Source of the DNA: Dehalococcoidia bacterium
Lineage (GTDB): Bacteria > Chloroflexota > Dehalococcoidia > UBA2979
DNA: 64,000 nucleotides
Assembly: GCA_965262725.1 (NCBI GenBank)
Contig: OZ253555.1
Span: forward strand, 704,001-768,000
Direction: 5' to 3'
A program made the position numbers and the translations under genes. Below, piece after piece: positions 20,271-43,232 of the stretch. Under the pieces are notes generated by a model. The model was not told the DNA's origin. It saw only the letters and a list, made by a program, of their open reading frames with translations, and ran no database searches. Positions within the stretch are counted from its first letter, which is position 1. Each line of letters opens with the position of its first letter.

Positions 20271-20429
20271 TGGCACACCGCATCCGCGAGGCGTGGGGCG
20301 AGCACGGACCGCAGGCTCCGTTCTTCGGCCCGGTGGAGGTAGACGAGACCTACGTCGGCGGGTGGGAATGATGCTTACATCTGGCCCCACTTTGATCCTC
20401 TGATCTGGCCCCACCCCCGGGGACCGGGA

Positions 20430-21212
20430 TCAGGTCGTTGGGGCACCTCCTCTCGGGGAGGTCGAGGCCCGGAGCCGGTAGGACTCGGTGCCGGTCTCGA
20501 TGATATGGGCACGGTAGGTGAGGCGGTCAACGACGGCCGCGGCGAGACGAGGGTCGGTGAAGATGCGGCCCCACTCGGAGAACGGGGAGTTGGAGGCGAC
20601 GGCGACCGATGCCCGTTCCTCGCGCTCGGTCAGGATCTGGAACAGCATTTCGGCACCGCGCGGGTCGAGGTGGACGTACCCGAACTCATCCAGGCAGAGC
20701 AGGTCGAGGCGGCCGTAGCGGGCGACGAGGCGTGAGAGCGCGCGATCATCCGACGCTTCGGCCAGTTCATTCACCAGGGCGGCCGTGGTCATGTACCGCA
20801 CGCGCAGCCCCAGGTGGCAGGCGGCCATGCCGAGGCCGATGAGCAGGTGTGACTTCCCGGTGCCGCTGTCACCGAGCAGGACGACGGGCTCGCCCCTTTC
20901 GACCCAGTCGCAGCGCTCCAGCGTGGCGAGCGCCGGCGCGTCGACTGTCGGCGCCGCCTCGAGGTCGAAGTCGGCGAGGTACTTGAAACGCGGGAACCGC
21001 GCCTCGACGATACGGCGCTGACGGCGCCGCTCCTCACGGTCATCGCGTTCGGCTCCCAGCACTTCGGCGAGATAGCCCAGATGGGTGATCCGGTCTCGGA
21101 CCGCGGCTTCGGCGAGCGGGAGCGCCTGCTTCCTGACGGTGGGGAGACGGAGCTCGCGGCAGATCGCCTCGATTGTCAGCTCCGCGGCCTGGTCGGTGAG
21201 GGGTGCTGTCAT
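20430..21212 (-). CDS. istB: IS21 helper ATPase IstB
   Basis: GDSGTGKSH, LDEFGY, VDRL. Confidence 0.95.
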   Translation of the reverse strand: MTAPLTDQAAELTIEAICRELRLPTVRKQALPLAEAAVRDRITHLGYLAEVLGAERDDREERRRQRRIVEARFPRFKYLADFDLEAAPTVDAPALATLERCDWVERGEPVVLLGDSGTGKSHLLIGLGMAACHLGLRVRYMTTAALVNELAEASDDRALSRLVARYGRLDLLCLDEFGYVHLDPRGAEMLFQILTEREERASVAVASNSPFSEWGRIFTDPRLAAAVVDRLTYRAHIIETGTESYRLRASTSPRGGAPTT

Positions 21213-21228
21213 CGGGTGCCTCCTGTGG

Positions 21229-22863
21229 TCAGCGTGCCGTCGACACCGCAGCGGTGACGGCGGTTGTGGTGGTGTGCGACGCGTTCTCGGCAGACCGCGG
21301 AGCGCGGGAGCGCCCGCCCGGCGACGTGCCGGGCCATCGGGAATCACCCGAGAGCAGCGCATCGTAGCCATCGAGGAGCGGGGCAGGTCGGTCGTAGCGC
21401 TCCAGGTGCGGTCTCTCGACGGCGGCGTCTGGTGGCCTGCGGTCGGCGAGACGGCGCGCCTCGATGGCGACCAGTTCGGGGTTCACCGACTGGATCCTGT
21501 TGACCGTCCCGAGCGCGGCGTGCACCGCCGTGAAGGGAAGATGGCGATGCAGGAGCAGGACCTCGATGTACGCCTGCGTGCCCGCGCGGTCGCCGAGCTT
21601 GCGGCGGGCGCGGTCCCAGAAGCGCTGATGCTCGGCTGTGACGTGTCCCTTCGCACGCGCCTGCTGGAGCGCCACCGAGCCCGGGACCGCCCCGGGCTTG
21701 CGCGCGAGCACCTCCAGATAGTGGTCGAGCAGCAGGACCTCTGCTCCGGTGCGGGCGCTGCGCTCGTGGTGGGCGACTTCACGCCCCTCGGCCCACACGG
21801 TCAGGCTGTTCCCGGACAGCCGCACGTCCAGCTTCCGGCCTGCATAGGCCGCCGGGACCGAGTAGCGGGAGCTACGCACGGCGATGCGCGCCTTGCGGTC
21901 GACCTTCGCGCGCAGCGGGATTGACGGGTCGAAGCGCTCCGCCGGAAGCGGACGCAGCGAGGCCTTCTCGTTCTCTCCCATCTCGCCGACGGTGGCGAGG
22001 CGGCTCTCGATGTGCCGGGCGTCGTCGGTGCGGTCCGCCTCCCGCACTCGTTCGTTCAGCTCGCCGAGGGTCGCCACCTTCGGGACCGGCACGAAGTGCC
22101 GCCGGCGGAAGCGGCCGACCTCGCCCTCCACACCGCCCTTCTCGTGCGCGCCCTCGATGCCGGGCTCACAGAAGAAGCTGTCGAAGCCGTAATGCGAGCG
22201 GAGCGCGATGAAGCGCTCGGTCTGCAGGCGCTCGCGTCCCTGCAGCACGGTGGTGACGGCCGCCGTCAGATTGTCGTAGCGGATGCGCCGCGGCACTCCG
22301 CCGAGCCGCTCGAAGGCGACCACGTGCCCCTCGAGCAGAGACTCCTGGCCCTCGCCGACGAAGCAGACGTGCGCCGCCCGCCCCGAATGCGAGAGCCGCA
22401 TCACGAACATCGCCAGCCGGGTCTCGACGCCCTCCAGCCACACCGTCACCGTGCCGAAGTCGACCTCCGCCTCCTCGCCGGGAGGATGGACCTGCGGGAT
22501 CGTCACAACCGCGCGCCCGCCCTGGATCTCGCGACGCAGGCGCGCGACGCAGGCGCGGACCGTGGGCTCGGCCACCGTCGCCCCGTGTTCGTCGACGAGG
22601 CGCTCCCAGATGCGCCGGGCCGTGTGCCGCTGCTTGCGCGGCGCGCTGAGGTCGTCCACGAGCCAGCCCCGGATGACCGAGACGTACGGCCCGAGCTTCG
22701 GGGCCACGCGGGTCGCCTGCTTGCGTTCCGGGGGTATCGCCGACCCAAGAGCCTGCCGCACCGTGCGCCGGTGCACGCCATGCCGGCGTCCCAGCTCATG
22801 GATCGACAGCTCCTCCTCCCTCGCCATCCGTCGGATAGACTCGAACAGCTCCACTCTCGACAC
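21229..22863 (-). CDS. istA: IS21 transposase IstA
   Basis: HTH, EVDFG, YDNL, EKGGVEG. Confidence 0.95.
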   Translation of the reverse strand: MSRVELFESIRRMAREEELSIHELGRRHGVHRRTVRQALGSAIPPERKQATRVAPKLGPYVSVIRGWLVDDLSAPRKQRHTARRIWERLVDEHGATVAEPTVRACVARLRREIQGGRAVVTIPQVHPPGEEAEVDFGTVTVWLEGVETRLAMFVMRLSHSGRAAHVCFVGEGQESLLEGHVVAFERLGGVPRRIRYDNLTAAVTTVLQGRERLQTERFIALRSHYGFDSFFCEPGIEGAHEKGGVEGEVGRFRRRHFVPVPKVATLGELNERVREADRTDDARHIESRLATVGEMGENEKASLRPLPAERFDPSIPLRAKVDRKARIAVRSSRYSVPAAYAGRKLDVRLSGNSLTVWAEGREVAHHERSARTGAEVLLLDHYLEVLARKPGAVPGSVALQQARAKGHVTAEHQRFWDRARRKLGDRAGTQAYIEVLLLHRHLPFTAVHAALGTVNRIQSVNPELVAIEARRLADRRPPDAAVERPHLERYDRPAPLLDGYDALLSGDSRWPGTSPGGRSRAPRSAENASHTTTTAVTAAVSTAR

Positions 22864-23633
22864 ACTCCTCTTCCCTCGCTCCGGGAGTCATGCAGTCACC
22901 CGAGCGTAGGTCCTGGATGGGTCGGGGGTGGGGCCAATTCAAAGGATCAAAACGGCTCCAGGTGGGGCCAATTCAGAGCATCATTCCCAGGCGGGCTCGC
23001 GAAGAACAAGCACGCCTCGGAGCGCGACCGCATCGGCAAGTGTGGCGGGCTCTCGACCAAGGCGGCCGTGATCGGCGTGAAGGACCGCGAGACCGGACAG
23101 GTGCGCGCGCAGGCGATCGCAGACACCGTTGGCGACACGCTGCGCGAGTTCTTGCGCGACAACACCCGCCCCGGCGCGCAGGTGTACTCAGACGGCCACG
23201 GCGCATACCTCGGCCTCGCTGGCGAGTACAAGCACGCTGCCGTGCAGCACAGCGCGGGGACGTACGTCATCGCGCAGGTGCACACCAACGGCCTCGAGAG
23301 CTTTTGGTCGATGCTGAAGCGCGGCTACATCGGCACGTTCCACCAGATGAGCGAGAAGCACCTGGGTCGCTACGTTTCTGAGTTCGCTGGCCGCCACAAC
23401 GCTCGCCCGATAGACACTATCGACCAGATGCGCGTCGCCGTGCGCGGGATGGTCGGGCGCAGGCTGCGCTACTCGGACCTCATCAACTAGAGTGTGGTTG
23501 GGTACTCACGGGACCGCCGGGGCGCGCCTTGTCACCGGTGGCACGCGCCAGTACGCTGCGGCAGTCTGGCCGGTGGCCACTCCCTGACTTCTCGAATCGA
23601 GTACTATGTATAGTTGGACAAAGGGAGATGCGA

Positions 23634-24765: not shown

Positions 24766-24992
24766 AGCAACGGGGACTACCAAGTTGGGTGGCTGGACGG
24801 GGATCCTACTCGTCCGGGCCGGGGGGTCGGCAGAGCCTGCAGGAAGTCCTCGACGCGGCGGGGCGGCGGTTCGCCCCTCGCCTGCGCCAGCAGGTTTGTC
24901 GATCGCCAGGGTCATTGAGCCACGCGTCGCCACGGTCATTGGACCACCCGGGACGCCGGTAGGCGGCTTGATATCAGCGAGCGTCTAGCTCG

Positions 24993-25766
24993 TCAATCAC
25001 CTCCCGTCTGCGCCTCGAGCAGGGCGCGGTGCGGCGAGAGCCGCTGGCGGTAGCTATCGCCCTCGATCACGATCTGGTAGCTGGCGTTGGCGAGGCGGTC
25101 GAGGGCGCTGTTGCCGAGGATCGGGTCGTCGAAGAGACCCAGCCATTCCTCCACGGCGCGGTTCGAGGTGATGACGAAGCTCGAGCTGCGGTGGCGCCCG
25201 ATGACCAGCTCGTAGAGGTCGATGGACTGCTGCGCGCTGAGGCGATGGAGCCCGAGGTCGTCGAGGATGAGCAGGTCGGGGGCGAGGAAGCTTCGGAAGA
25301 CCTTCTCGGCCGAGTGGTCGACGCGGGCCTGCGCCATCTCGCGGAAGTAGTGGTCGGCCGGGGCGAAGCGCACGCTGCGTCCGGAGCGGACGGCTGAGTA
25401 GCCGAGCGCCTGGGCTAAGAAGCTCTTGCCGACGCCGACGGGGCCGACGAGCAGGACGTGTTCGCGGCGATCGAGGAAGTGCAGCGAGAAGGCGGCGTCG
25501 AACAGGCGGCGGTCGAGCCGGATGGCGGCCGCCCAGTCGAAGTCCTCGAGGCGGCAGAGCTGCTCGAAGCCGGCCTGGCGCAACCGCAGCTCCAACCGCC
25601 CGTGGTCGCGGCGGCTCACCTCGTCGACGAGCAGGATCTGCAGGAAGTCCGCGTAGTCGAGGTGGTCGCGCCGCGCGAGGGCGATGCGCTCGGGCAACGT
25701 GTCGAGCATGCGGCCGAGCTTGAGGCGCTTGAGCAGCGGACGGAGGTCTGAGGTGGTGGCGGTCAT
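24993..25766 (-). CDS. istB: IS21 helper ATPase IstB
   Basis: GPVGVGKSF, LDDLG, LDRL. Confidence 0.95.
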   Translation of the reverse strand: MTATTSDLRPLLKRLKLGRMLDTLPERIALARRDHLDYADFLQILLVDEVSRRDHGRLELRLRQAGFEQLCRLEDFDWAAAIRLDRRLFDAAFSLHFLDRREHVLLVGPVGVGKSFLAQALGYSAVRSGRSVRFAPADHYFREMAQARVDHSAEKVFRSFLAPDLLILDDLGLHRLSAQQSIDLYELVIGRHRSSSFVITSNRAVEEWLGLFDDPILGNSALDRLANASYQIVIEGDSYRQRLSPHRALLEAQTGGD

Positions 25767-27343
25767 CGTGGTGCTCCTGTCGGGGTCTGCGTGCGGGACT
25801 GTGCGAAGACGGAGCCCGAGTGGGCGAAGCGCCCCGGAGGCGGCGGCAGCTCGGGCTGGTCTGGGGTGCTCTCCTGGTCGAGGGCCTCGACGAGGATGCG
25901 CTCGAGGCGGCGCACGTCGATGAGGTCGACCTCGAGCGCGCGGCGGCAGGCGGCGTCGAGGCGGGCGGGGGAGTAGCGCTCGGCGAGGCGGAGCAGCTTG
26001 TGGCCCTGCCGGAGCTTCGCCCAGGGCAGGGAGCCCTCGAAGAGACGCTCGGCGTAGGCGCCCACGGCCTCCCCCAGCTCGGCGGCGCGGCGCTGTATCC
26101 AGTCGGGCGCCCGCCTGGTGTAGGGGGTGAGCTCGGCCGGGTAGTCGTTCGGGTCGGTGGCGCGGCCGCCCCGGCGCTGGCGCGGGTGGACCTTGATGAG
26201 CTGACCGCGGTGGTAGATGCGCACCAGCTTCGAGCCGAGCTGCACCTCGACCTTCTGGCGGGGCGGGCAGGCCGTGGACGGCACCGAGTACAGCGCGTAC
26301 TGGCAGGCGATGTGGTGGTCGGGATGGACCGTGGCGGTCCGCCAGTCGGGGACCTCGTAGGGCTCGCCGTCCCAGGGAGCGAGGAGAGGGAGCTCCTCCT
26401 CCCGGAAGACCTCGAGCGGCCGGCGGCGGGTCGTGCCGTGGATGCGCTGTCCCGCCACCTCCAGGCACCAGCTGCGGGCGGCGGAGCGCAGGTCGACGAC
26501 GTCCCGGAAGTCGCCGCCCTTGAAGAGGCGCTCGCGCACGTAGGGGATGCTGCGCTCGACGCGCGGCTTGTCGCGGGGATGACGCACGCGCGCGGGGTCG
26601 GTGATGAAGCCGCGGTGGCGGGCGTACTCGAGGAAGCCCCGCGTGAAGCGCGGGTGCAGCGCGTCGGCCCCGGCGACGGCGGCCGGGAAGTTATCGATGA
26701 CGAGGTAGCGGGGCACTCCCCCGAAGAAGGCCCAGGCCTCCTCCAGGCCCTCGATCACAGCGTCCAGCTTCTGGCTGGTGGTGGGCCACACAAAGCAGTG
26801 GCGGGAGTAGCGCCAGACGACGACCAGCGCCCACACCGCGCGCCGACGGCCGCTCTCGGGGTCCCGGATGAAGCCGAGGCGGCCGAAGTCCATCTCCGCC
26901 ACCTCGCCCGGCGGCCCGTCGTCCATGCGCACGGTCGACGGCAGCCGGTGGCGCCAGCCGCGGCGCCGGATGAAACGCCGCAGCGTGGTGTAGGAGACCT
27001 CGCAGCCTCGTCCGGCGAGGAGCTCCTGGATGCGCGTCAGTTGCAGGCGGTCGGTCTCAAGCCAGCGCTCGATCTGCTCCGCCCAGGGCGAGAGCAGCTC
27101 TTCGCTCGGCGCCTCGACCTGCCGCGGGCCGGAGAGGCTCAGCGTCGCCAGCGCGGCGAGCTGCTCCTCACTCGGCTCGGGACCGTCAGGTGTGAGGCCG
27201 GCCGCTTCGGCCGCGTCGATGTAGCGGCGGACCGTCTGACGCGACAACCCCATCCCGCTGGCGATGCGGCGCTGGCTGAGCCCCGCCTGCCAGCGACGAA
27301 TGATCTCCTGGATCTCCACCCCGTGTACCTCCCGGTAGGCCAT
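25763..27343 (-). CDS. istA: IS21 transposase IstA
   Basis: EMDFG, IDN, DKPRVER. Confidence 0.95.
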   Translation of the reverse strand: MAYREVHGVEIQEIIRRWQAGLSQRRIASGMGLSRQTVRRYIDAAEAAGLTPDGPEPSEEQLAALATLSLSGPRQVEAPSEELLSPWAEQIERWLETDRLQLTRIQELLAGRGCEVSYTTLRRFIRRRGWRHRLPSTVRMDDGPPGEVAEMDFGRLGFIRDPESGRRRAVWALVVVWRYSRHCFVWPTTSQKLDAVIEGLEEAWAFFGGVPRYLVIDNFPAAVAGADALHPRFTRGFLEYARHRGFITDPARVRHPRDKPRVERSIPYVRERLFKGGDFRDVVDLRSAARSWCLEVAGQRIHGTTRRRPLEVFREEELPLLAPWDGEPYEVPDWRTATVHPDHHIACQYALYSVPSTACPPRQKVEVQLGSKLVRIYHRGQLIKVHPRQRRGGRATDPNDYPAELTPYTRRAPDWIQRRAAELGEAVGAYAERLFEGSLPWAKLRQGHKLLRLAERYSPARLDAACRRALEVDLIDVRRLERILVEALDQESTPDQPELPPPPGRFAHSGSVFAQSRTQTPTGAPR

Positions 27344-27835
27344 CGCTGCTCCCTCCGCTGGGGATGCAGGCGATGGTGGCCGTACCGGCGGCCCGAGTGG
27401 TCAGACCCCCCGGAGGGGTGGCTCAATGACCTTGGCGAAGTGGCACATAGACCCTGGCGATCTCGCCGTTTGCTGGTCTATAGATCCTGGCGATTCACAC
27501 CCCCGGATCGCGGGAGCCACGCTCTACTCCCACGCGCCGCACGCACGCTTCACTTCCCACGTGTCACACGAGCACGTATCCGATGTGTTCGGAAATCCTG
27601 CTCCACGTTGAGCGTTGCCGAGAGGTCGACGGACGTGTCGATCGCGATGTGGTGGCGCTCGACCTCTCCGGCACGCTCGAGGAGGTGCTGGGGCGCGTCG
27701 GCTACGTCGCCGAGAGGGTGCGGGCCCTGTGGAATGAGGCGATTCGCTCGAGCCGCGTCGCGTAGCGCGGCGGGTTGGGGGCAGGCACCCGCTTGCGTGG
27801 AGGCAGTCGTCACACCGGAGAGCTTATGGTGACCC

Positions 27836-28564
27836 CTACCGCGACCGTCGGAGAGAGAGATCGGCAACGACGCCGAAGTGATCTGAGAGCTCCCGCTCCT
27901 CGAGCATATTACTGATCACGTACACGTGCTCGACCGTCAGATCCTCGCTGAGCGCGATGTGGTCGATGCTCTTGCGGTCATTGTGGGTAACCGGACCGGT
28001 CGCGATCGTGATATCCGAGGAGAAGCACTCGCGGAGCGCCGACCTGGTCCTGGCCGGCGCTCGGCCGCCCGGACCGACGACCTGATTGAAGTCGCCCATC
28101 ACGATGAGGCGCTCTGAAGTCCCCCGCCTCAGGATCGCCGTGAGACCGGCCACGTACCGCTCGTGGTCCTCCCACCGCCGCTTGCGCCCCGGCCCGCGGC
28201 GCTCCTCGGTCCGCGACCCGAACCAGGGGATGCAGACCCCGATCACGGTGACGGGTCCCAGTGATGTCCGGGTGATGCCGGACACGTACCGCCCGGGCGG
28301 CATCGAGGTGAGGCCCGCGTCGTCGACGTGCTCCCACGGCTCCCGGGACCAGAGCATGACTTTCCGGCGGTGCTCCCGGATCGGGTAGCCGTAGTCGGGC
28401 CCTGAGCGGGCGACGCATCCGTCTGGAGCAAGCAGCTCGTCATGGGTCTCGGTGAGGCAGAGCACCTCGGGATCCCAGCCGGCAATGCGGCGCAGGATCT
28501 CCGGCGTTCGCCGCGATCTGGGAGTCGCCCACCTGACATTCCACGTCGCCACCCTCAGCTGCAC
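27836..28564 (-). CDS. endonuclease/exonuclease/phosphatase (EEP) family protein
   Basis: VATWNV, LCLTE, MGDFNQ, IDHI, SDHFGV; RBS GAAGGAG before GTG. Confidence 0.9.
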   Translation of the reverse strand: MQLRVATWNVRWATPRSRRTPEILRRIAGWDPEVLCLTETHDELLAPDGCVARSGPDYGYPIREHRRKVMLWSREPWEHVDDAGLTSMPPGRYVSGITRTSLGPVTVIGVCIPWFGSRTEERRGPGRKRRWEDHERYVAGLTAILRRGTSERLIVMGDFNQVVGPGGRAPARTRSALRECFSSDITIATGPVTHNDRKSIDHIALSEDLTVEHVYVISNMLEERELSDHFGVVADLSLRRSR

Positions 28565-29159
28565 GCTCGACTCCTTCGGGTGTGCGCCTTGAAGTTGAAG
28601 GACGGTGCAGGATGACCTGACCAGTCTGGAGACGTGCTCGTTGTCGCCAACCGGTGCAAGTCCGGTCCGGGTAACTATCAGGAGGCTCGGTAGCAGGTCG
28701 GCGGCTTGGTCTGGAAACGGACCGGGTCGGAGCCCGACGTCGAAAGCCCTTTCAGGGGAAGCAAACACACGGTCCGCAGCATAAAGCGAAGCCTGCCGCG
28801 TCGTAAGAGTCCCCGCCATTGGCGGGAAAGAGGAAGAGCCGAGCCCCGACCCTCAGGGCGAAGGCCATGGAAGAGATGAAGACCTGGAATCGCAATCTCG
28901 AAGAACTTCCCGGCGTAAGGGGCGTGGAACGTGTGGAAGGTGACAACGGGAACAAGGGAGGCCCTCCCCGGCCCGGTACCTGCGGAATGGTGTCGGAGTG
29001 AGGCGTCCTATAACCGGTGATGAGCCGGGAAGTGGGCGACCTGCCGGGAGGGAGTCGGAGGCGGCCATATTACCGACTGAGCCGAGCGGACAACAGAACC
29101 GCCGGTGAGGGAAGGGCCGCTACTTCGCCTGTGCGTGTTGCTTGGGGAAGGATCGGTGA

Positions 29160-32100
29160 GTGCCCGTGGAGGCTAGACCCGCCAAGGAAACGGTCCGAGA
29201 ACTACAGCGCACGCTCTACCGGGCGGCCAAGGCCGAGCCCGGACGACGTTTTCATGCGCTCTACGACAAGGTCCACCGCAGGGACGTTCTGGAGCGCGGG
29301 TGGGGGCAAGTGCGTCGCAATCGCGGCGCAGCCGGCATCGACGGCATCACCCTTGCCGAGGTCGAACGCTACGGCGTGGACCGACTGCTTGACGAACTGT
29401 CCGTGGAACTGAAGGCGGAGAGCTATCGCGTGCAGCCGAGCCGCCGGGTCTGGATTCCCAAGCCCGGACGGTCGGAGCGACGACCGCTCTCTATCCCGAC
29501 GGTCCACGACCGCATCGTACAGGCAGCGCTGAAGCTGGTGGCGGAGCCGGTCTTTGAGGCCGACTTTCTGCCGTGTAGCTTTGGCTTTCGCCCGAAGCGT
29601 GCGGCGCATGATGCCCTGCAAGTGCTCATTGATGAGACGTGGCGGGGTCGGCGATGGGTGGTGGAGACGGATATCGCCTCGTGTTTCGAGTCGATACCGC
29701 GTGCGTCCGGAAGTCGAAGGGGTGGTGACGTGATGACGTGACCGGTCCGGAGACATGCTCGTTGCTGCCAGCCGGTGAGAGTCCGGCACGGGTAACTGTC
29801 AGGAGGCCCGTTAGCAGGTCGGCGGCGTGGACGGGAAACGGTCTGCGTCGAAGCCCGACGTCAAGAGCCCTATGAGGGGGAGCAAACGTGCGGTCCGCAG
29901 CATGACGCGAAGTCTGCCGCGCCGTGAGACTCGCCTGTCTATTGACAGGACCAAGGAGGAGCCGAGCCCGGGTGGTCAGGGCGAAGGCCATGGACGAGGT
30001 GAAGATCCTGGAATGCAGCCTCAAGAAACCTCCCGGCGTATGGGACGTGGAACGTACGGAAGGTAGCGACGGGAACCGGAGAAGCCCTCCCCGGCCCGGC
30101 ACCCTGTGAGAGGGCGTCGGAGCGAGGCGTCCTATAACCGGTCAGAGCCGGGAAGTGGACAGCCAGCCGGAAGGGTGGCGGAGGGGGTCGTAGTACCGCT
30201 GGAGCCGGACGGACAACATAACCGCCGGTGATGGGAAGGACCCCTACTTTGTCCGTGCATGTTGCTGGGGGTGTGGACTGGTGAGTGCCCCTCGGGGCTA
30301 GCAACCACTTGGTAGGGTTCGAGGCTCTCCGCACATGCTGTACCGGCTGGCCAAGGCACGACCCACGTTGTGGGGAGCGCTGCATGCCATCTGGTGAAGG
30401 GCATCGGTGAGCCGGATGAGGGGTGCGCCAAGCTAACTGGTGTTTGGACAGGGGGTGAAAGTCCGCCGCGGTGAAGGGGCTAGCCACCCTACACCGCTCC
30501 CCGAGCCGTGCGTGGGTCGCTGCGAGGCGGCACGCGAAGCGTCGGTAGGGGTACATGTGGGCAAGGCTATAGAGCGCCGAAAGTGGCATCGTTCGGAGTG
30601 CCGAGGCTTTCTCGCAGGTCGAAGGCAACAGCGGCGGCGGCGTTTTTTTTTGGCGAGCCGTCGCCGTCTCCGCGGCGTCTAAGAACCATTGCACGCATGC
30701 ACGTCCATCACCGGGACTTGGGAGAGCTGCGCGCCGCCCCGGCGAGTCGTACGTCGGGGCCGCGTCGGGAAGGGAGGCAACCGTAGCCGATGATGAACGA
30801 CGCGCAGCAGTCTGATGGGGCCGTACGAGCGATGAAGGCGGCGAACAAAGGGGCGCGAGCCCTGGCGGAGTCGCTGGAGCAAAGGGCCCCAGCCGAGAGG
30901 AATCGGCGACGCTCCGGCACAGTCCGGTCTCAGAATCGGGGAGCTGTGTCACCCGGAGCGGAGCGGATACGGCAGCTCGCAGAGAAGAAGCCGGGAGAGA
31001 AACTCATCGCGCTCCTGCACCACATCACGCCGGAAACACTCAAGGAGGCGTACCACGCTTTGAAGCGGGACGCGGCTCCGGGCGTGGACGGGGTGACGTG
31101 GCGGGAGTACGGGGACGGGCTGGAAGAGCGACTGCTCGACCTGCACGGCCGCGTGCACCGGGGAGCGTATCGGGCGAAGCCCGTGCGGCGGGTAGAGATA
31201 CCAAAGCCGGACGGGGGCATACGACTGCTCGGTATCGTCACGCTGGAGGACAAGATCGTTCAGCGGGCAGTGGTGGACAATCTCTTGAATCCGATATTCG
31301 AGTCGGAGTTCTGCGGCTTCTCGTATGGCTTCAGGCCGGGGCGCTCGGCGCATGACGCGCTGGACGCCCTGGCCTACGCGGTCGAACGGCGCAAGGTCAG
31401 TTGGGTTGTCGAGGTGGACATCCGGCAGTTCTTCGACAGCATCGACCGGGAGCGGCTGATGTCGTTTCTGGAGATGCGCATCGGGGACCGGCGGGTGCTG
31501 CGCCTGATACGAAAGTGGCTGAACGCCGGCGTCATGGACGCGGAGACGGAAGTCGACTTTGTGCGGGGGACGCCGCAGGGAGCGCCGATATCGCCGCTGC
31601 TTGCGAACGTGTACCTGCATAACGTGCTCGACGACTGGTTCGCGCGTGTGTGGCGACCGCAGGAGGCCCAGGGCGAGGCGTACATCGTGCGGTATGCCGA
31701 TGACTTCATCCTGGGGTTTCAGCATCGCAGCGATGCGATGCGGTTCATGGAGGCACTCCGGGAGCGGTTCGCGGCCTACGGGCTAGAACTGCACCCGGAG
31801 AAAACCCGCCTGCTGTCGTTCGGTAGGTTCGCAGCGGCGAACAGGCGGCAGCATGGGGAGGGGCGACCGGAGACGTTCGACTTCCTCGGCATGACGCACT
31901 ACTGCCGGACGATGCAGAACGGGCGATTCGGGTTGGGGCGTAAGCCCTCAGCGAAGCGTATGCACCGCACGCTCAAGGCCATTAGGGCCGAGTTGCGGCG
32001 GCGCATGCACCACAACCCGGTGAGCGTGGCGCAGTGGCTAGCGCGGGTACTGCGTGGGTGGCTTGGCTACTACGCGGTGCCGACGAGTTATCGGTTCCTC

Positions 32101-33279
32101 CACCGCTTTGTGCAGACCTTGCTTCGCATGTGGTGGCAGGTCTTGCGGCGGCGGTCGCAACGGGACCGTTTCTCGTGGGAGCGCCTCGATGCCCTGTGCC
32201 GGGACTACTGGCCCCGAGTCTCCATCCTCCACCCGTGGCCAACGCAGCGATTTACCGTCAGGACTCAAGGCAGGAGCCGGATGCACTAGCGTGCATGTCC
32301 GGATCCGTGCGGGGGGTGCCGGGTAACCGGCATCCCTACCGCGAAAGAACCTCACGTCCGGTTCGATGTGGCAGGGGCTGGAGACGGACGCTGCTATGGC
32401 CGTGGAGTTGGGCACCACCGGGAAACCGGCTTGGAACTGATGCGCCACCGCCTACGGCTCGCACCGCGCCAGCCCCTGACCCTACACGACCGGTTGATGG
32501 AGGCGGTGGAGGAGCGGATATATGACCGGAAGCTCCTGAAGCTGGTGCGGGCGATGCTCCGTGCCGGGGTGATGGAGTCCGGGGCCGTGCGGCACAGCGT
32601 GACGGGTACGCCACAGGGCGGGGTAGTATCCCCGCTTCTGGCCAACGTCTATCTGCACCGGGTTGACCGGGAATGGGAGACGAGGGGCCGGGGAGTGCTG
32701 GTGCGATATGCCGACGACCTTGTGGTGCTCTGCGGAACGCAGCGGGAAGCGGATGCGGCGCTGGCGCTGCTCCGTGAGCTGGTCGCCGAGCTCGGACTGG
32801 AGCTGAAGGCGGAGAAGACCCGCATCGTGCACCTGGCGGAAGGAGGCGAGGGGCTGGAGTTCCTCGGCTTTGAACACCGGTGGGTACGGGCTAGGCGGGG
32901 TTCGAATCTCCGATTCCTTGCACGCTTTCCCTCGCGACGAGCGATGCAGCATGCACGTGACCGCATCCGTGAGATGACGGTGCGGTCACGGTTGGTGTTG
33001 AGCGTGGAGCGCATCGTGCAGGAGGTGAACCGCCTCCTGCGCGGCTGGGCGGGCTATTTTCGTTACGGGAACGTGGCGAAGTCGTTCCGCAAGCTCAGTG
33101 CGTACGCCGCGTTGCGGCTGGTGGTGTGGTGGGGTAAGCGTCGGCGCAGTCGGCAACGTCTGCGGTACGGCGTGTCATACCGCCATGCGACCCGCCTCGG
33201 TCTGCTCTCGCTCAGTGGATGGGTTGTCGCACCGCGGCCGAACCGGTCGTGGCGGGTGAAACCGAATGCCGTCCGGTGA
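29160..33279 (+). CDS. ltrA: outer intron RT/maturase, split: 29160-29700 joined to 32486-33279 (444 aa)
   Basis: Removing 29701-32485 restores FESIP|HDRLM in frame; GTPQGG, RYADD and X domain; no En domain. Confidence 0.85.
30423..32345 (+). mobile_element. group II intron 3 (inner, with intact ORF)
   Basis: 5' GTGCGC; DV GAGCCGGATGCACTAGCGTGCATGTCCGGATC; DVI ends CCCTACCGCGAA. Confidence 0.9.
30790..32289 (+). CDS. ltrA: group II intron reverse transcriptase/maturase
   Basis: APGVDG, IPKPDG, SYGFRPGR, GTPQG, RYADD; 499 aa. Confidence 0.95.
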   Translation: MMNDAQQSDGAVRAMKAANKGARALAESLEQRAPAERNRRRSGTVRSQNRGAVSPGAERIRQLAEKKPGEKLIALLHHITPETLKEAYHALKRDAAPGVDGVTWREYGDGLEERLLDLHGRVHRGAYRAKPVRRVEIPKPDGGIRLLGIVTLEDKIVQRAVVDNLLNPIFESEFCGFSYGFRPGRSAHDALDALAYAVERRKVSWVVEVDIRQFFDSIDRERLMSFLEMRIGDRRVLRLIRKWLNAGVMDAETEVDFVRGTPQGAPISPLLANVYLHNVLDDWFARVWRPQEAQGEAYIVRYADDFILGFQHRSDAMRFMEALRERFAAYGLELHPEKTRLLSFGRFAAANRRQHGEGRPETFDFLGMTHYCRTMQNGRFGLGRKPSAKRMHRTLKAIRAELRRRMHHNPVSVAQWLARVLRGWLGYYAVPTSYRFLHRFVQTLLRMWWQVLRRRSQRDRFSWERLDALCRDYWPRVSILHPWPTQRFTVRTQGRSRMH

Positions 33280-33751
33280 AGGGCGTCGGTAAGCCGGATG
33301 CGGGAGAACCGCCTGTCCGGTTTGACGGGGAGGAGCTGGAAACGGGCGATATGCCATGGCCGTGGGATTGGGCACCGCGGGGAAACCTGCTCGGAACAAG
33401 AGCGCCACCGGCCTACAGCGCGTACCGCGCCAGCTCCTCACCCTACTCGTCCGGAAGTCCGAAACGCGAGTCATGCCCTCGGCTCCCGGATACCGTCCCG
33501 AGTTCTCACGACAACGACCGACGCGCGGCGGGGCCGATCCCGACGGTTGGGGAAAGCCCCGCTTCCCCGGCATCGTCGCATCCTGCGCCACCGGCTGGCG
33601 GAGCCAGCGTTCGCTCGGCTCCTCGTCCCTGAGGGCATCTCTGCTTCGGCGTGTACGGCCGTGCGCGCCGCCCTCTGCGCTCAGGTGCCGGGAGCGCCGG
33701 GGTGCCGGCCGCCGGACAGCCGTGGGGGTGAGGCATGACAGAATGCGCGCC

Positions 33752-34102
33752 ATGGTCGCCACGCTCCCCATCACGACGCTGATTGCTCGTGCCCCGTGGC
33801 GCGAGGCGGTGACGTACCGCGAGACATGGCCCCACGAGTACGTCGTGGTCCGCCGCGACGGGCAGCAGGCGTTGCTCGCCGCCTTCTGTGCCCGCATCGC
33901 GCGCGGGGAGGGTGTCGAGTGCCGCTTCTTCGGGGAGACGCGGCGCTATCTCTTCCTCGGCGATCACAAGTACTGGACGATGACCGACTGCGCCGACATC
34001 GACGTCGACGCCGACGACTACGTCCTCAACCGCGCGCGGCTCTACCGCGACCGCCGCGACTTCGACTTTCGGCCGGGCGACCACGGCACGCGGGACGGGT
34101 AG
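33752..34102 (+). CDS. conserved hypothetical protein
   Basis: WREAVTYRETWPHEY...KYWTM...VLNRA; high GC3. Confidence 0.65.
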   Translation: MVATLPITTLIARAPWREAVTYRETWPHEYVVVRRDGQQALLAAFCARIARGEGVECRFFGETRRYLFLGDHKYWTMTDCADIDVDADDYVLNRARLYRDRRDFDFRPGDHGTRDG

Positions 34103-34109
34103 CCTTCCC

Positions 34110-35096
34110 GTGCCCGACGCCCACGACGCCGCCGCCGAACGGTTGGCCGTTCACTCGCTGTGGCACCACGAGGCACTCGACTTCACGCGATGGCTGGCCG
34201 CGAACCTCGGCGTGCTCGGCGACGCGATCGGGCTGCGGCTCGAGCTCCTGGAGCGCGAGCACGCGGTCGGCCAGCTCTGGCTCGACATCCTCGCGTGCGA
34301 CGCCGACGCAGACGTGAAGGTGGCGATCGAGAACCAGCTCGCGGCGGCCGACCTCTCGCACCTCGGCCAGCTCATCACCTATGCGACGGGGAGCGACGCC
34401 CCCACCGCCGTCTGGGTCGCGACGGCGTTCCGGCGCGAGCTCGCCGACGCGCTGGACCTCCTGAACGCCTGGACCCGCGACGACGTCCGCTTCTACGCCG
34501 TCCAGGTGGAGGTCGTGAGGCGCACCGGGGACGGCGATCCGGTGCCCCGGTTCCGCAGGGTCGTCTGGCCCGGCGGACGGGACGAGTCGCTCGTGCTGGC
34601 CGCCGCGGAGCCGTCGCCCGAGGCCCGGCGCTACCAGGAGTTCTTCGAGCCGTTGATCGCGGAACTGCTGCGGACGGGCTTCGCCGGGCGCGCCGTGCAG
34701 CACTTTGACCACACGGGGCGGTTCTTCCGCTCGCGCCTCGATCCCGGCATCGGCTACGCGGCGTCGTTCTGGAGGGGTGCCGCGTTTGTCGGGCTCCACA
34801 TCCGCATGGACGACACTGCCCACACCAAGCGCGTCTTCGACGCGCTGCACGCCGACCGGGCAGGCATCGAGGCCGACCTTCCCGCGCCAGGCGGGTCGGA
34901 GTGGTCGTGGCTGCGGCACGACGCCTACACGTTCTCCAGCATCAACCTCCGCCGCGACGGCGCGATCCACGACCCTCCGGACCGCCTCGCCGAGACGCGG
35001 GAGTGGATGCTCGACACGCTGCCGCGGCTTCGCGCCATCTTCGACCCGCGCCTCGCGGTGATCCTCGAAGGCGTCCGCGCGCCGAACGGTGAGTAG
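34110..35096 (+). CDS. NucS-like PD-(D/E)xK endonuclease with DUF4268 C-terminal domain
   Basis: E..DFTRWLAANL, DILA...VAIENQL, HLGQLITYA. Confidence 0.8.
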   Translation: MPDAHDAAAERLAVHSLWHHEALDFTRWLAANLGVLGDAIGLRLELLEREHAVGQLWLDILACDADADVKVAIENQLAAADLSHLGQLITYATGSDAPTAVWVATAFRRELADALDLLNAWTRDDVRFYAVQVEVVRRTGDGDPVPRFRRVVWPGGRDESLVLAAAEPSPEARRYQEFFEPLIAELLRTGFAGRAVQHFDHTGRFFRSRLDPGIGYAASFWRGAAFVGLHIRMDDTAHTKRVFDALHADRAGIEADLPAPGGSEWSWLRHDAYTFSSINLRRDGAIHDPPDRLAETREWMLDTLPRLRAIFDPRLAVILEGVRAPNGE

Positions 35097-37997: not shown

Positions 37998-39205
37998 GGG
38001 TTCTCTGAACAGGTCGCCGCGTCGTTACTGGAGCACATGCACACTCCGATGACTATATGCGATCATGGCACTCCTCCGGGAAAGGGGAGCGCTGCCATGC
38101 ATCAGCCGACATTCGCGAGAGTCGAGTTCGAGCGGGATGGCTACAAGACGCGCCGCCAGAAGTTCCTCGAACGGCTGGATGGCCTCGTCCCGTGGCAGAG
38201 GTTCGAAGCAGCCATCGAGCCCCACTACCCGAAACCGGGCCGCGGGCGGAGGCCCTACCCGCTCTCCGTGATGCTGCGCATCCATACCGTGCAACTCTGC
38301 TACAACCTCAGCGACCCCGGCATGGAGGATCTGCTCCACGAGGCCGAGTCGGTGCGAGCCTTTTGCTTCCTCACGCTCTCCGAGCCCATCCCCGACGAGA
38401 CGACGATCCTCAACTTCCGGCACCTGCTCGAGCGCCACTCCCTGGGTAGCAGGATCCTCCAACTCATCAACGAGCACCTCACGAGCAAGGGATTGAAGCT
38501 GAGCGAGGGCAGCATCGTGGATGCGACCATCATCTCGGCGCCATCGTCGACGAAGAATCGCGGGCGGGCGCGGGACCCGGAGATGCATCAGACCAAGAAG
38601 GGGAAACAGTGGTTCTTCGGGATGAAGCTGCACATCGGCGCCGACAGGGATACTGGACTGGTCCACAACTTCACGACCACGCCTGCGAACGTGTCGGACG
38701 TGTCTGAGACGCACCGCCTGCTGCACGGCGAGGAAGCCGAGGTCTACGGCGACGCCGGGTACCGGGGCGTGCAGAAGAGACCCGAGAACGCGGACTCCAG
38801 GGTCAAGGACTGGAACGTGGCGATGCGCCCGGGCCTCCGGCGTGCGCTCGACCCGGAGAGTCCTGAGGCCGTCGAGGAGAAGCGGAAGGCATCGGTGCGA
38901 GCGCTGGTGGAGCACCCGTTCTACAGCGTGAAGCGGCGCTTCGGCTACGCCAAGGTGCGGTACCGGGGTCTCTTCAAGAACCACGAGCGGTGTGCGGTCT
39001 TGCTGGGGTTCCACAACCTGCTCACCGCGAAGCCGCACCGTGCCTGACCGTGGGTGGAGTGCGCCCTCCCCGCCCCACACGGGGCGAGGAGGGGAGCCAC
39101 AGGGGCCCGCGAGGGGGCGGATATGACCACTGTCATCGGGAATCCGCCTGAGAGCGCCTGACCGCGGCGAAACTGGGTCGCTAGACCCACCTGATCAGAC
39201 TTGCC
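37998..39205 (+). mobile_element. IS5-family element
   Basis: Imperfect IRs (TCTGA-CAGGT core); CTAG duplicated at 37994-97 and 39206-09. Confidence 0.88.
38097..39047 (+). CDS. IS5 transposase
   Basis: IPDETTILNFRH, VDATII, FGMKLH, GDAGY, RALVEHPF. Confidence 0.95.
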   Translation: MHQPTFARVEFERDGYKTRRQKFLERLDGLVPWQRFEAAIEPHYPKPGRGRRPYPLSVMLRIHTVQLCYNLSDPGMEDLLHEAESVRAFCFLTLSEPIPDETTILNFRHLLERHSLGSRILQLINEHLTSKGLKLSEGSIVDATIISAPSSTKNRGRARDPEMHQTKKGKQWFFGMKLHIGADRDTGLVHNFTTTPANVSDVSETHRLLHGEEAEVYGDAGYRGVQKRPENADSRVKDWNVAMRPGLRRALDPESPEAVEEKRKASVRALVEHPFYSVKRRFGYAKVRYRGLFKNHERCAVLLGFHNLLTAKPHRA

Positions 39206-39207
39206 CT

Positions 39208-42200
39208 AGGATGAGGCGCCGTCTCCGCGATCTCGCAGAGCATCTGGACGATATCCTCGGGCACCTCCTCGTCCGCCAGAGTTCCAATCGCATCTGCGAG
39301 TGTGTCCTCTATCCCCGTAACCCCGATGGCGGCGATGCGCCGCAGGATGCTGCATACCTGATCGCGTGTCCCGGGCCGCTCCGCCCCTGGCGGCCCGGTG
39401 AGTCCGCGCAGAATCGCTGCGAAGTAGGCGGAGTGATACGAACCATCCATCTGCTCAGGAAGACGCGCGAAGCGGCCCGGATCCTCGCGGACGAGTTCCT
39501 CAAGCCCGCGAGACAGCTCATGAGCGCCGCCGACGATCCGCCCGCCGCGAGCCGCACCCTCTCGGTCATGACGGTAACGTGCCATCGCCGCAAGCCACTG
39601 CGCATCCGTCATGAGTCGCTGACTCGCCGGCGAGATCGGCGGGCCCACCCACTGCGGCTTGAAGTCCTCGTGCGATGGTGGTCGCGGGGCTCCGCGCTCA
39701 GCAGCGTCCGTGTAGCGTCGTTCGAGCTCCTCGATCCGGCGGCGCGCGATCTCGCTGAGCCGCTTCTCGTCCATGGCGCAGAGGAGAGCCAACGCCGTGC
39801 GGCCAACGAACCGGTGCTGCCGTTCCCAATTGGGAGTGAACTCCAAGATGGCGGACTCTAGGTCGGCAAACGACTTGTCGGAGCACTGAGGCGAGGCCGC
39901 GGCAATCGCCGTGCGGCTAATCGCCGCGAGCATGTCTGTCCCGCCGGCGGCACTGCTGTACCCGATGTCGAGCCGGCGGTCTGGTGAGTCCAGGAGGAAC
40001 CGTACCACTCGTTCGGCATACCGCTCCGGGTTGGCACTCCAAGCTCGGAGCAGAAGCGCCGACATCCACTTGCTATTCCCCAGTCGCTCCGCCTCGACGA
40101 GGGCATCGAGTGCCTCAGGATCCTCGCGGGCGACCCGGCCCATCGCATCCACGAGGGCGTCTCGGAGTTGCTGGTCTGGACCGCCCCACCGGCTCGGTGC
40201 CGCGATCCGCTCCTTCGGGACGGCTAGGTCGAAGCGCGCTAGCCGCGGGAAGAGCTCCCTGGCGAATTGCACTGGGGCCGCTTCGGCGCACGTGCGGATC
40301 AGGTCGCCGCTGTACTGGCTATGTGGTACCAGTTTGAGGCCGTACTGGAATGGGTCACCCTCACCGAGCCCCGCGGCGCGTGCGATCTGCCGGTCAAACC
40401 ACGTACCGAGCACCCTGATGGCGAACTCCGCTTGTTCGGTACCCAGTCCGCGCCACATCAACCACCAGTCGTCGTTGCCAGCGATTCCCGGACGGGCATC
40501 GTCGAGCGTGCCATCCCGGATGAGCGCGACAGCGAGCTCTTGCATTTCCGCGCTGGTGCGGCCGTGCCGACCCTCAATGAGCCACCGGAGCCGCCCGCTC
40601 CACTCCTTGGAGGTGCCTCGGAATCCTCGGACCAGCGCCGCGACCTCCGCGGACCTCTCGTCCAGCACATGGGGCATGCGGAGCAGCCACAGGGCGCGGT
40701 TGACCTGCAGTTCGTCGGATTTGAGCCATTCCTCCCAGCGTCCCATCGCCTGCAGGATGTCGAACCAGGGCACGGAGTTCCGCGCGACTGTCCACGCGTG
40801 ATCGCCGAGCGTCTCGGCGAGCCCCTCAACCACTCGCCACTCATCCGACGTGGGATCGGGAAGCCCGCCGAGCCAATCGAGCACGAGCTGCTTGATGTGG
40901 AAGCGGGTGTCACTGTGGCTCAGCAATCCCCTGAGTGCTGTCAGATAGGAACGTCGATCGGACTCACGATCACGCAGAAACGCCAGCACCTGCCGGACTT
41001 GCGACCGTTTGAAGAGGTGCTGCTCGTCCTCAAGTAGCCACTGGACGATATTCTTGTTCGAGCGCACGAAGGCCCTCGAGAACGCGTAGTCGAAGAACGA
41101 CTCGTGGAAGAAGCCGACATAGTCGTTCTGGACGTAGACGACGCTCTCGGACGCCAACACGCTGAGTGCCTCGCCGTACTCGTCCAGGACGAACGCGGGC
41201 GCGACGAGCGATTCGCGCCGGCTGAGTTCATCAGACAGGCGCCCAAGTGCATGAGACCAGATCCTCATGTCGCCATGGAGCCGTTGGGAGACGGCGGCTG
41301 ACTTGTGCTCCCAGAACGCATCGTAGAGGTCTGCAGCGCTTGCGAATTCGATGTGGTGGGAGTCGGTCGACTCCAGCAGAAGGCGCAGGTGCAGAGGGGT
41401 CGAGAGGATCGCGATCTGCTTCTGGCTCAACCCCGCTGGGTCGAGCCCCGCAGCCGCGATCGCCGACCGGATGACCTCTTCCTTGAGCGGCCCGACAGCA
41501 ATGCGTGCGACACGCTCCCGATCTTCGGCGAGCCCGCGCAGTCGGGGGTCGCGGTCGAAGTCGAAGGAGCGGCACGCAAAAAGGATGCGCATGTTCGGGT
41601 ACGTTGTCCGGGCCTCTTCGAGCGTTTCGTTGAAGGCACCCCAGACAGCCTGGTTGCGAGCGGACACGACGCTCATCGCGTCGAGTTGGTCGACGACCAG
41701 AACAGATGGCCGGCCGCCCGCGAACTCCCCCAAAGTGATCGCTGGGGACGCCGGCAGCCCGAGCCGTGTGCCGATTGCCTGAGCGTGTTGATCGCCGCTC
41801 TCAAGCGTGTCCAGCCGAACGACGAGATACGGAACGTTCTCCGCCTCAAGTTGCTCCATCAGCTGCACCAGCACACAGCTCTTCCCGCTACCGGCCGCTC
41901 CTTCCAGCACGACCGACTTCCGCTGCTCGAGCAGAGCATCTAGTGCGGTCGCCGCCTCGTCCCGAATGATCTGGTCGCGATTGATGAGGCGAGACCGCAC
42001 GTCCTCCAAGTGGGAGCGGTTGCGCCGCTGGATTTGCCCACGTACGTCCGCGTCACCCACGAGTCGCGACCTCAAGAGTCCGTGCGCTGCAAGATCGTCG
42101 AGGACCGCCTCGCCAGTGAGACGCCTGCCGAGGTTGTCAGTCAGGAAGTCGCCGATCAGGAGCTTCGCGGCCCGAGGATCGACGGGCCGTCCATCCGCAG

Positions 42201-42759
42201 CCCTGAGCAGGGCGCGGACACGCGTCTCCACGGTCGCCCGGAGCATTGCCTCATTGACTGTCCGCACGCTCAGCCGGCGAAGTGCGGACCAAGCTCGGTG
42301 CTCGCTACCGCAGATCGGGACGACGTGCTTGACGAACTGCCCGGAAAGCACGGCGTTTTGCTCGATGCGCGCACCGAAATCGTCGAACGACTCAGTCGCG
42401 CTAGACTGGTCAATCAGCCTCTCGACTTCGCTTGCGCTAGTGCCGGAGCTGAAAACTCCCTCGGCCCCACTGTCGACCTTCGCGATGAGGTCGCCGAGGA
42501 TGCTCCTCCCCGTGCGCCCCTCCTCGGTGAGACGACTGAGTGTCCAGTTGCCCTTCCCCTGCTGTCGCTTGATGGAGTGGTACTCGAGGGCACCGGAGCG
42601 TTTCGTCCGAACGAACTCGACCCCGGCGGCTTCGTCACCGATCGCTTCGATTGTCAGGTCGACGTATTGGCCGTCGATGAGGTCCAGTGCAGCATGAACC
42701 GCCCACAGGCCCTCGTATCGGTTCCCCAGCTTGTCAGCCTCGCCGCCGGATCTAGGCAT
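39208..42759 (-). pseudogene. Avs/AVAST-like nuclease-STAND NTPase-helical repeat protein, N-terminal part
   Basis: GGEADKLGNRYE...VEF...EYHSIKRQ nuclease-like N-terminus; GAAGSGKS; VVDQLD; FFHESFFDY. Confidence 0.8.
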
Positions 42760-42799
42760 TGTCTCCGCGGTCCACACGCATGGAGGTGATCGCAGGCTC

Positions 42800-43135: not shown

Positions 43136-43232
43136 TGGCGGGAGTGCGTGGGAGTCGAACCCACCCAGGACTGCGACGCAGCCCCACGACGGTTTTGAAG
43201 ACCGCGGGCACCACCGGACACCATCCACTCCC
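43136..43232 (-). tRNA. selC: tRNA-Sec (anticodon UCA)
   Basis: 97 nt; CTTCAAA anticodon loop; long variable arm; GTTCGACTC T-arm; 8-bp acceptor stem; GCCA end. Confidence 0.95.

Follow-up and report, generated by a model that had tools for sequence, protein, structure and literature searches.

A three-deep nest of group II introns in a Dehalococcoidia genome and a proposed order of its splicing

How can a group II intron produce its reverse transcriptase (RT) if the gene for this protein is split by a second intron, and if the ribozyme of this second intron is in turn split by a third? The question is raised by a locus in the genome of a Dehalococcoidia bacterium (GenBank assembly GCA_965262725.1), within a stretch of 64,000 nucleotides (nt) of contig OZ253555.1 (positions 704,001 to 768,000), which is referred to as the window and whose numbering is used unless a position carries the prefix G000:C1. 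Three introns are stacked here on the + strand: an outer intron A (28582-33446), a middle intron M (29701-32485) and an inner intron I (30423-32345); B denotes the sister family of A and I' a lineage related to I. The genome is a single 3.67-Mb contig (G000), and all copy numbers refer to the whole of it. Here three group II introns are likely to be genuinely nested one within another, as the outcome of successive retrohoming in a genome crowded with introns and insertion sequence (IS) elements.

All three introns start with GTGCG (at 28582, 29701 and 30423). The six boundaries proposed in an earlier note on this DNA, all on the same strand, are correct to the base, as judged from the sequence ends and from Rfam matches of all three introns to covariance models of domains I to IV (D1-D4), for which the gathering score is 49: A reaches 91.8 bits (RF02003, 28648-28784), M 102.8 bits (RF02003, 29769-29905) and I 152.6 bits (RF02005, 30458-30687). 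The RT/maturase-encoding intron A, 4865 nt long as found and 2080 nt net, has the same ends as M (2785 nt as found, 862 nt net), GTGCG...CCCTAC. I measures 1923 nt, ends GTGCG...CCGCGAA and occurs once in the genome; its last base (...CGCGAA) is atypical, but every relative of the I and I' lineages has this end, and empty sites fix its position. A compact 5' ribozyme precedes its open reading frame (ORF), which starts from intron nt 368 and encodes an intact RT plus maturase of 499 amino acids (aa) (30790-32289; RVT_1 profile 1-204 plus GIIM; TIGR04416 360.7 bits against a cut-off of 300).

M is inserted in the ORF loop of domain IV of A, the ribozyme of which is left uninterrupted, whereas I sits in the terminal loop of domain V (DV) of M, after the first loop nucleotide. 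I thereby separates the DV 5' strand of M, GAGCCGGATGAGGG with the AGC triad (30409-30422), from the 3' part of M (32346-32485), which comprises the remaining loop nucleotides AGAA, the DV 3' strand CCTCACGTCCGGTTC and a long domain VI (DVI). With RF00029, the model for DV and DVI, only A (33289-33446, 36.5 bits, E 1.5e-4) and I (32272-32345, 30.3 bits, E 0.0048) are matched in the window; the missing match for M is what would be expected if I splits its DV. The covariance-model check suggested in the earlier note thus confirms D1-D4 above gathering for all three introns and leaves DV/DVI (E 1.5e-4 to 5e-3) below the gathering score of 40; the long DVI of A, B and M lowers the score. In sequence and fold one can recognize the AGC triad, the bulge and, 7-8 nt before the end, a bulged A.

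Removal of M rebuilds the RT gene of A in frame, as the note had claimed. The first piece (29160-29700; 180 codons plus 1 nt, ending ...CFESIP plus C) and the second (32486-33279), which completes a His codon with AC and continues with 263 codons and a stop, join to 1335 nt that encode 444 aa and contain one, terminal, stop. Piece 1 covers RVT_1 profile positions 1-83, piece 2 positions 90-204 plus GIIM, with the YADD motif and the maturase domain; TIGR04416 matches the two with 165.1 and 210.5 bits (profile 2-137 and 140-352). Aligned with the uninterrupted RT of a sister intron from the same genus, the joined protein shows no gap where the two pieces meet (...SCFESIPHDRLM...). Only in this joined form does A possess an RT together with a maturase (X) domain, while M is ORF-less, its longest open frame being 83 codons. 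Removal of I, in the same manner, rebuilds DV of M: the 862-nt product equals 24 uninterrupted, 100% identical copies in the genome, and every M copy ends in the same 140 nt as 32346-32485 (100% identity). One uninterrupted copy scores 37.5 bits with RF00029 (E 2.7e-4), again below 40, and folds (z = -4.64) into the hairpin GAGCCGGAUGAGG-GAGAA-CCUCACGUCCGGUUC, followed by the long DVI, in which the bulged A stands 7 nt before the end. The anatomy is that of a twintron, as the inner intron lies wholly inside its host on the same strand and its removal restores an element of the host intron. Since the pieces of the nest are 100% identical to repeated elements, a chance arrangement is ruled out.

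The copies elsewhere in the genome put the nest into context. A is present in three full copies, 100% identical to each other; each of the two outside the window is interrupted by an IS21-type element, with a short duplication, and recovers no RT frame, so that the A in the window is the only one with a restorable RT. B has 12 copies, about 80% identical to A in DNA and 77% in the RT protein, and the flanks of these copies are alike over tens of bases only, which indicates that B did not spread within a larger repeat. M is the most abundant with 28 copies (3 in A, 13 in B including one tandem pair, 12 elsewhere), of which 27 retain an intact DV and thereby show that I was inserted precisely. 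It is nearest to B (86-92%), and remnants of the start and end of the ORF in the alignment identify it, at the level of sequence, as an ORF-less deletion derivative of a B-like intron. In all 15 RT genes of A and B, M occupies one and the same codon (16 insertions, as one gene has a tandem pair), and none of these genes is open as DNA. No empty M site with up to two mismatches was found in the genome; by contrast, four A and eleven B home sites are empty. Removal of M restores a 461-codon frame with YADD in nine of the 12 B copies and an RT frame in one of the three A copies. I', finally, is about 85% identical to I, has a GAGCG 5' end and comprises about nine full copies; its home is a repeated 1.66-kb element, which it enters about 10 nt short of the end (...CCCTGATCCA/CCGAAGAAGAGTGCGCGAGC..., the slash marking the insertion point here and below), and both occupied and empty sites exist.

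Some of these copies have histories of their own. Copies of A, B and M have been disabled by insertions of two IS21-type elements, one of 2627 nt with 14 near-full copies and one of 2603 nt with 15, which produce duplications of 5-8 bp; such elements lie at 20363-22989 and 24898-27499 in the window, flanking the nest, and at G000:C1:344132-346758, 406315-408951, 410130-412732 and 291405-294032. At G000:C1:549500-551223, one B intron contains two head-to-tail M copies, one exactly at the 5' junction of the other, both of which must splice for the RT frame to be restored. Another nest of different composition is found at G000:C1:1521916-1526026, where M has entered the RT ORF of an I'-type intron at a site that resembles its target (TTACGAGTCGGGCTAC/TAC), with about 1.36 kb of extra insert adjoining. 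At G000:C1:1874882-1878478, a 338-nt 5' fragment of A, the rest of which is absent, is followed by an I'-type intron carrying a 1.3-kb insertion. Examples of I' occur at G000:C1:289127, 2444929 and 2384238, and the copy at 2027306 lies in a long perfect palindrome.

Partly filled alleles, which the note had proposed to look for, exist in both forms, as M without I and as A without M. The latter are represented by the joint of 29699/29700 to 32485/32486 in contigs of public sequencing runs. Contigs of four runs (X1, X5, X8 and X12) provide the public evidence; the kind of these runs is unrecorded, X8 being marked 'DNA?'. The joint is found on a 1440-nt contig of X5 (0 differences), in X8 at a depth of 79.4 and on two contigs of X12, but not in X1. 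The joint of 30422 to 32346 is seen in X1, X5 and X8, which the other M copies would account for. A low-depth contig of X8 (depth 2.6) connects 28564 to 33447 with 28 other letters, and represents a variant site without A. In a genome of the same genus (G003), one B-like intron without M has a 472-codon frame, with the site TTCGAGTCGATTCCGC/ACGACC. As far as sequence can tell, natural empty alleles prove both inner junctions.

The insertion of I into a DV loop is also seen outside this genome. A genome of another genus of the same family (G008) contains five I-like introns, 92-93% identical to I, and B-like introns, none of which carries M. Three of the I-like introns reside in the DV loop of B-like introns with both junctions (gagccgtgtgcggg/GTGCGCC...CGCGAA/agaaccgca), and a fourth shows the 3' junction only. 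The putative target-recognition loop (EBS1, see below) is the same as in I in two of the three G008 copies examined; L017 is one base off. The 5' junction pattern of I in DV was detected in 2 of 401 sampled genomes of the class, namely G000 and G008, and in none with the reversed control; no metagenome contig matched the 5' and 3' junction patterns in a scan from which near-relative records were possibly excluded. The I-type lineage would thus have its home site in the DV terminal loop of another intron family, a specificity that appears to be conserved across two genera.

How the three introns may have found their sites is suggested by their putative exon-binding sites (EBS), which pair with intron-binding sites (IBS) of the 5' exon. 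In an alignment of A, B and M, together with the flanks of all copies, two loops of domain I covary with the 5' exons. EBS2/IBS2 reads GAGTCC/GGACTC in A, CGGATA/TATCCG in B and GACTCG/CGAGTC in M; EBS1/IBS1 reads ACCC/GGGT, CAATT/GGTTG and GTGGT/ACCGC. In the window, the predicted EBS2 of A (28807-28812) would pair with GGACTC or cGACTC of the 5' exon and its EBS1 (28849-28852), assigned by covariation with B and M, with exon positions -4 to -1. The EBS2 of M (29928-29933) pairs with CGAGTC of the target TTCGAGTCGATACCGC and its EBS1 (29972-29976) with positions -5 to -1; at the 12 M sites outside RT genes, IBS1 positions -4 to -1 are pairable, by Watson-Crick or G-U pairs, in all 12 and position -5 pairs in eight. 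As EBS1, CAGCCTCA (nt 309-316 of B) was rejected because it is common to M despite the different target; the covarying loop at nt 271-276 suits all three families. For I, alignment with I' and the G008 copies places EBS1 at CTCGC (30611-30615), which is perfect with the cognate GCGGG and forms four of five pairs with GAGGG of M; an alternative register, TTCTC (30609-30613), gives five of five pairs, two of them G-U. EBS1 of I' (TGGAT) pairs with ATCCA. The DV loop of A (GCGGG/AGAAC, 33300-33309) matches EBS1 of I perfectly, yet is empty in all three A copies. An apparent second DV insertion at genome position 3632586, found as a pattern match to AGCCGGATGAGGGGCGAGA, proved to be an unrelated chance match.

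I has traits of class IIC: a short 5' ribozyme of 367 nt precedes the ORF, the RT consists of just RVT_1 and GIIM, and its best relatives of solved structure (6ar1, 7uim) are IIC RTs. Sites of I', however, have no conserved upstream hairpin and lie inside the end of the repeated 1.66-kb element, and I was not filed under this class. The idea that I' follows hairpins in the way of IIC introns was discarded: folding of 14 upstream flanks gave no conserved hairpin, and empty sites place the target inside the 1.66-kb element.

The nest may have formed in the following manner: A, the usual home of which would be an antisense site in the TNPIES-coding stretch of a Mutator/IS256-type transposase gene, would have inserted at a look-alike site just upstream of an endonuclease/exonuclease/phosphatase gene. 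M, with its exon-binding sites presumably retargeted to TTCGAGTCGATACCGC/AC, the stretch that encodes F-E-S-I-P-H in the RT genes of A and B, would have filled all such sites. I, from a lineage whose EBS1 (CUCGC in the RNA) appears to target the DV terminal loop, would then have entered DV of M at a site with one mismatch. As long as I is present, the DV strands of M would be held 1.9 kb apart and the loop would be destroyed; moreover, I would have to hold GAGGG as its IBS1, which also provides the upper DV stem of M (GAGG). With its DV split and GAGGG shared with I, M should be inactive until I has spliced out. With its own intact RT/maturase, I could in principle free itself. M encodes no protein, so that its removal should need an RT of the A/B type in trans, and after the excision of I this removal would restore the 444-aa frame of A.

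We infer that the order I, M and then synthesis of the RT is obligatory for A's own RT and not for the excision of A as such. The strict inner-middle-outer chain proposed from the sequence alone therefore survives in part: as a logical need for the RT of this copy it stands, but strict it is not, because the ribozyme of A is uninterrupted and because nine of 12 B copies need the splicing of M only. Across the cell, an RT 77% identical to that of A could come from these B copies after M has spliced. The order of excision, inner intron first, agrees with reviews of twintrons (PMC4424553). As no RT gene of A or B is open, removal of M needs an RT that exists only after removal of M; candidates for the start of this loop are self-splicing, carry-over of protein and another maturase. 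The cascade would concern the expression and mobility of the introns themselves: A is antisense to its neighbour in an IS-rich island, and no cellular gene should depend on splicing here.

Several points weigh against a working nest with this order. None of the public runs for the sequence is listed as RNA, and the proposed order of splicing is read from the anatomy. Every DV/DVI unit is below the RF00029 gathering score (36.5 for A, 30.3 for I and 37.5 for uninterrupted M, against 40). The joint of A without M comes from runs of unrecorded kind and might stem from spliced RNA. For the site of A, no exact empty allele turned up; what was seen is a paralogue with an indel of 10 nt and the variant contig of X8. 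All left-hand neighbours of the nest are on the other strand, and a scan of 27800-34200 for sigma-70-like promoters gave no site against 0.6 expected, which is uninformative. EBS1 of I in its cognate register is mismatched with GAGGG of M at one internal position, so that I may splice poorly in M, and I occupies only one of the 43 DV sites of the A/B/M family in this genome and is thus not visibly active. Lastly, no listed public contig crosses the M/I or flank/A junctions by at least 31 nt, which makes the support for the assembly indirect, as it comes from the depths of X1 and from the same arrangements elsewhere.

It could be asked, then, whether the nest is merely a product of mis-joined repeats, given 28 copies of M and three of A and public short-read contigs that break at every repeat boundary. 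Such a chimera is highly improbable: the single contig keeps apart 28 identical repeats of 862 nt and over 40 IS copies, the depth of I-specific sequence in X1 (12.8) fits that of the unique flanks (14.4-15.5) and the depth of A (about 53) corresponds to about three copies; I has no other location in the genome and must lie in the DV of some M copy; and I in DV recurs in an independently assembled genome, as A with M does three times here. The possibility that the nest is real but a dead end, silent debris in an IS-rich island without transcription of the + strand and hence without a cascade, is more serious, although it remains the less probable view. The antisense position of A, the strand of the left-hand neighbours, the IS21, IS1595-like, IS630-like and IS4/5-like surroundings and the result of the promoter scan would all suit it, as would a single-copy I with a mismatched EBS1/IBS1 in one of 43 DV sites, and internal introns that do not splice are known in plant mitochondria (PMC7049729). 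Against it, the parts of this nest are undamaged: both RT frames are open, the pieces of M equal 24 intact copies and A equals two other copies at 100%. So many identical copies speak for A, B and M having been active recently in this genome, and the promoter scan was limited to one promoter type.

The order could also be real in anatomy and yet not obligatory, with M and I, or A with both, excised as one unit. DV can act in trans in vitro. It might here be supplied by transcripts of other A, B or M copies or re-form around I, which would then be a giant insertion in its loop, and the composites may move as such. This is rather unlikely, but the census leaves room for it, in that all 12 B copies, at 12 different sites, and all three A copies carry M, which composite mobility would explain as well as re-invasion, and in that M lies in the domain IV loop of A and leaves its ribozyme intact. 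Mobility of composites has been discussed for the twintrons of Thermosynechococcus elongatus, where the evidence favoured separate mobility (PMC2882425). What speaks for the ordered reading is the position of I, which splits the DV terminal loop and whose IBS1 overlaps the upper DV stem; furthermore, the genome contains no second copy of M with I, or of A with M and I. The nest of three introns formed by successive retrohoming, with I to be removed before M and M before the RT of A can be made, thus remains the preferred reading.

The surroundings of the nest are those of a mobile element island. A is antisense to an endonuclease/exonuclease/phosphatase gene (27836-28564, - strand; Pfam Exo_endo_phos, whole profile 1-225), 17 nt upstream of its probable GTG start at 28564, which appears to be preceded by AAGGAG as Shine-Dalgarno (SD) sequence. 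In a paralogue of this region the sequence runs on across the A site, apart from an indel of 10 nt. Both remaining A copies are antisense in a Mutator-family gene (Transposase_mut), in the TNPIES-coding stretch, which the A site of the window resembles at 11 of the paired positions. The Mutator/IS256-type home of A is seen at G000:C1:340941-342008, where the transposase is disrupted; these A copies extend over 342010-347585 and 405353-413539, and four such sites are empty. IS21 (twice), IS1595-like, IS630-like and IS4/5-like elements and a STAND NTPase gene surround the nest. The latter, beyond the IS cluster, is a 1198-aa ORF (39181-42777, - strand; nSTAND1, AAA_22). An empty B home site lies at about 37967 (G000:C1:741967, - strand), about 30 nt from the end of a 1208-nt IS4/5-type element, to which the B home may be tied. 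A selenocysteine tRNA gene (43140-43232, - strand; RF01852, 71.6 bits) is located about 10 kb from the nest.

Nested group II introns have been described before, and the comparison shows where this locus is unlike them. That a triple nest is unusual in itself, as the note had it, is an overstatement: in the archaeon Methanosarcina acetivorans, homing into other introns has produced nests of up to five group II introns (Dai & Zimmerly 2003, as reviewed in PMC4424553). The two systems have in common the nesting on the same strand, the repeated site-specific homing into introns, the insertion of ORF-less introns into related RT ORFs and the lack of a cellular gene that depends on splicing. The archaeal nests reach up to five levels, whereas here one ORF-less intron saturates all RT genes of two families; insertion into a DV loop is not mentioned in the passages of the review on M. 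acetivorans that were consulted. In T. elongatus (TeI3/TeI4; Mohr et al. 2010, PMC2882425), ORF-less derivatives outnumber their parents and home into introns and IS elements. As there, a single ORF deletion gave rise to an abundant ORF-less intron, divergence of EBS created new targets, and IS insertions disabled copies. The inner intron of T. elongatus, however, is placed between two start codons, which allows the RT to be produced without splicing, and two of the ORFs have no interruption; here M interrupts the middle of the RT domain (profile about 83-90 of 205), 0 of 15 RT genes is uninterrupted, and the levels are three instead of two.

Reportedly, Copertino and Hallick found in 1991 an internal intron in domain V of the external intron of Euglena psbF. 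In Euglena chloroplasts, the mat2 maturase is reassembled once its internal introns have been spliced (PMC3534033), and as proposed here, the internal introns go first. The Euglena introns are degenerate, organellar and immobile, reside in essential genes and show no homing specificity, in contrast to the full-size bacterial retroelements with intact RTs of this nest. Sequential splicing of a twintron in vivo is documented for T.e.I7/I8 of Trichodesmium erythraeum (Pfreundt & Hess 2015, PMC4649490), which, like the nest, is bacterial and pairs two RT-encoding introns, the inner of which lies within a ribozyme domain of its host. That twintron has two levels, its inner intron is in domain I, it lies sense in a protein-coding host gene and its splicing was demonstrated experimentally, whereas here it is predicted from sequence.

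Within these limits, the locus is a new bacterial example of nested group II introns with two unusual details. Homing of a bacterial intron into a DV loop was not found described in the literature searched, which lacks most subscription journals and two key older papers; nor did that literature offer a match for RT genes completely saturated by their own ORF-less derivative, inserted where the genes cannot do without splicing. A more far-reaching picture, which must be regarded as speculative and rather improbable, is that of a four-level chain of parasites, consisting of an IS256-type transposon, A, M and I. M splits all RT genes of A and B and has no maturase of its own, so that synthesis of RT depends on splicing that RT provides, and the mobility of the family would become a self-sustaining, heritable on/off state with I as a second lock. 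If so, the loop would be autocatalytic and could not be restarted once the protein is lost, unless M self-splices, and I would lock the only remaining A-type RT gene.

A bearing on the physiology of the host is not evident; the value of the locus lies in the biology of the introns. It is a clean, undamaged bacterial nest, every level of which can be checked against natural empty alleles. Two specificities of homing from intron into intron stand side by side, that of M for an RT-coding motif (15 of 15 RT genes) and that of the I lineage for the DV loop. The locus thus offers a natural set-up in which to study the order of splicing, the service of one maturase to several introns in trans, and the self-regulation, or crippling, of retroelements by their own parasites.

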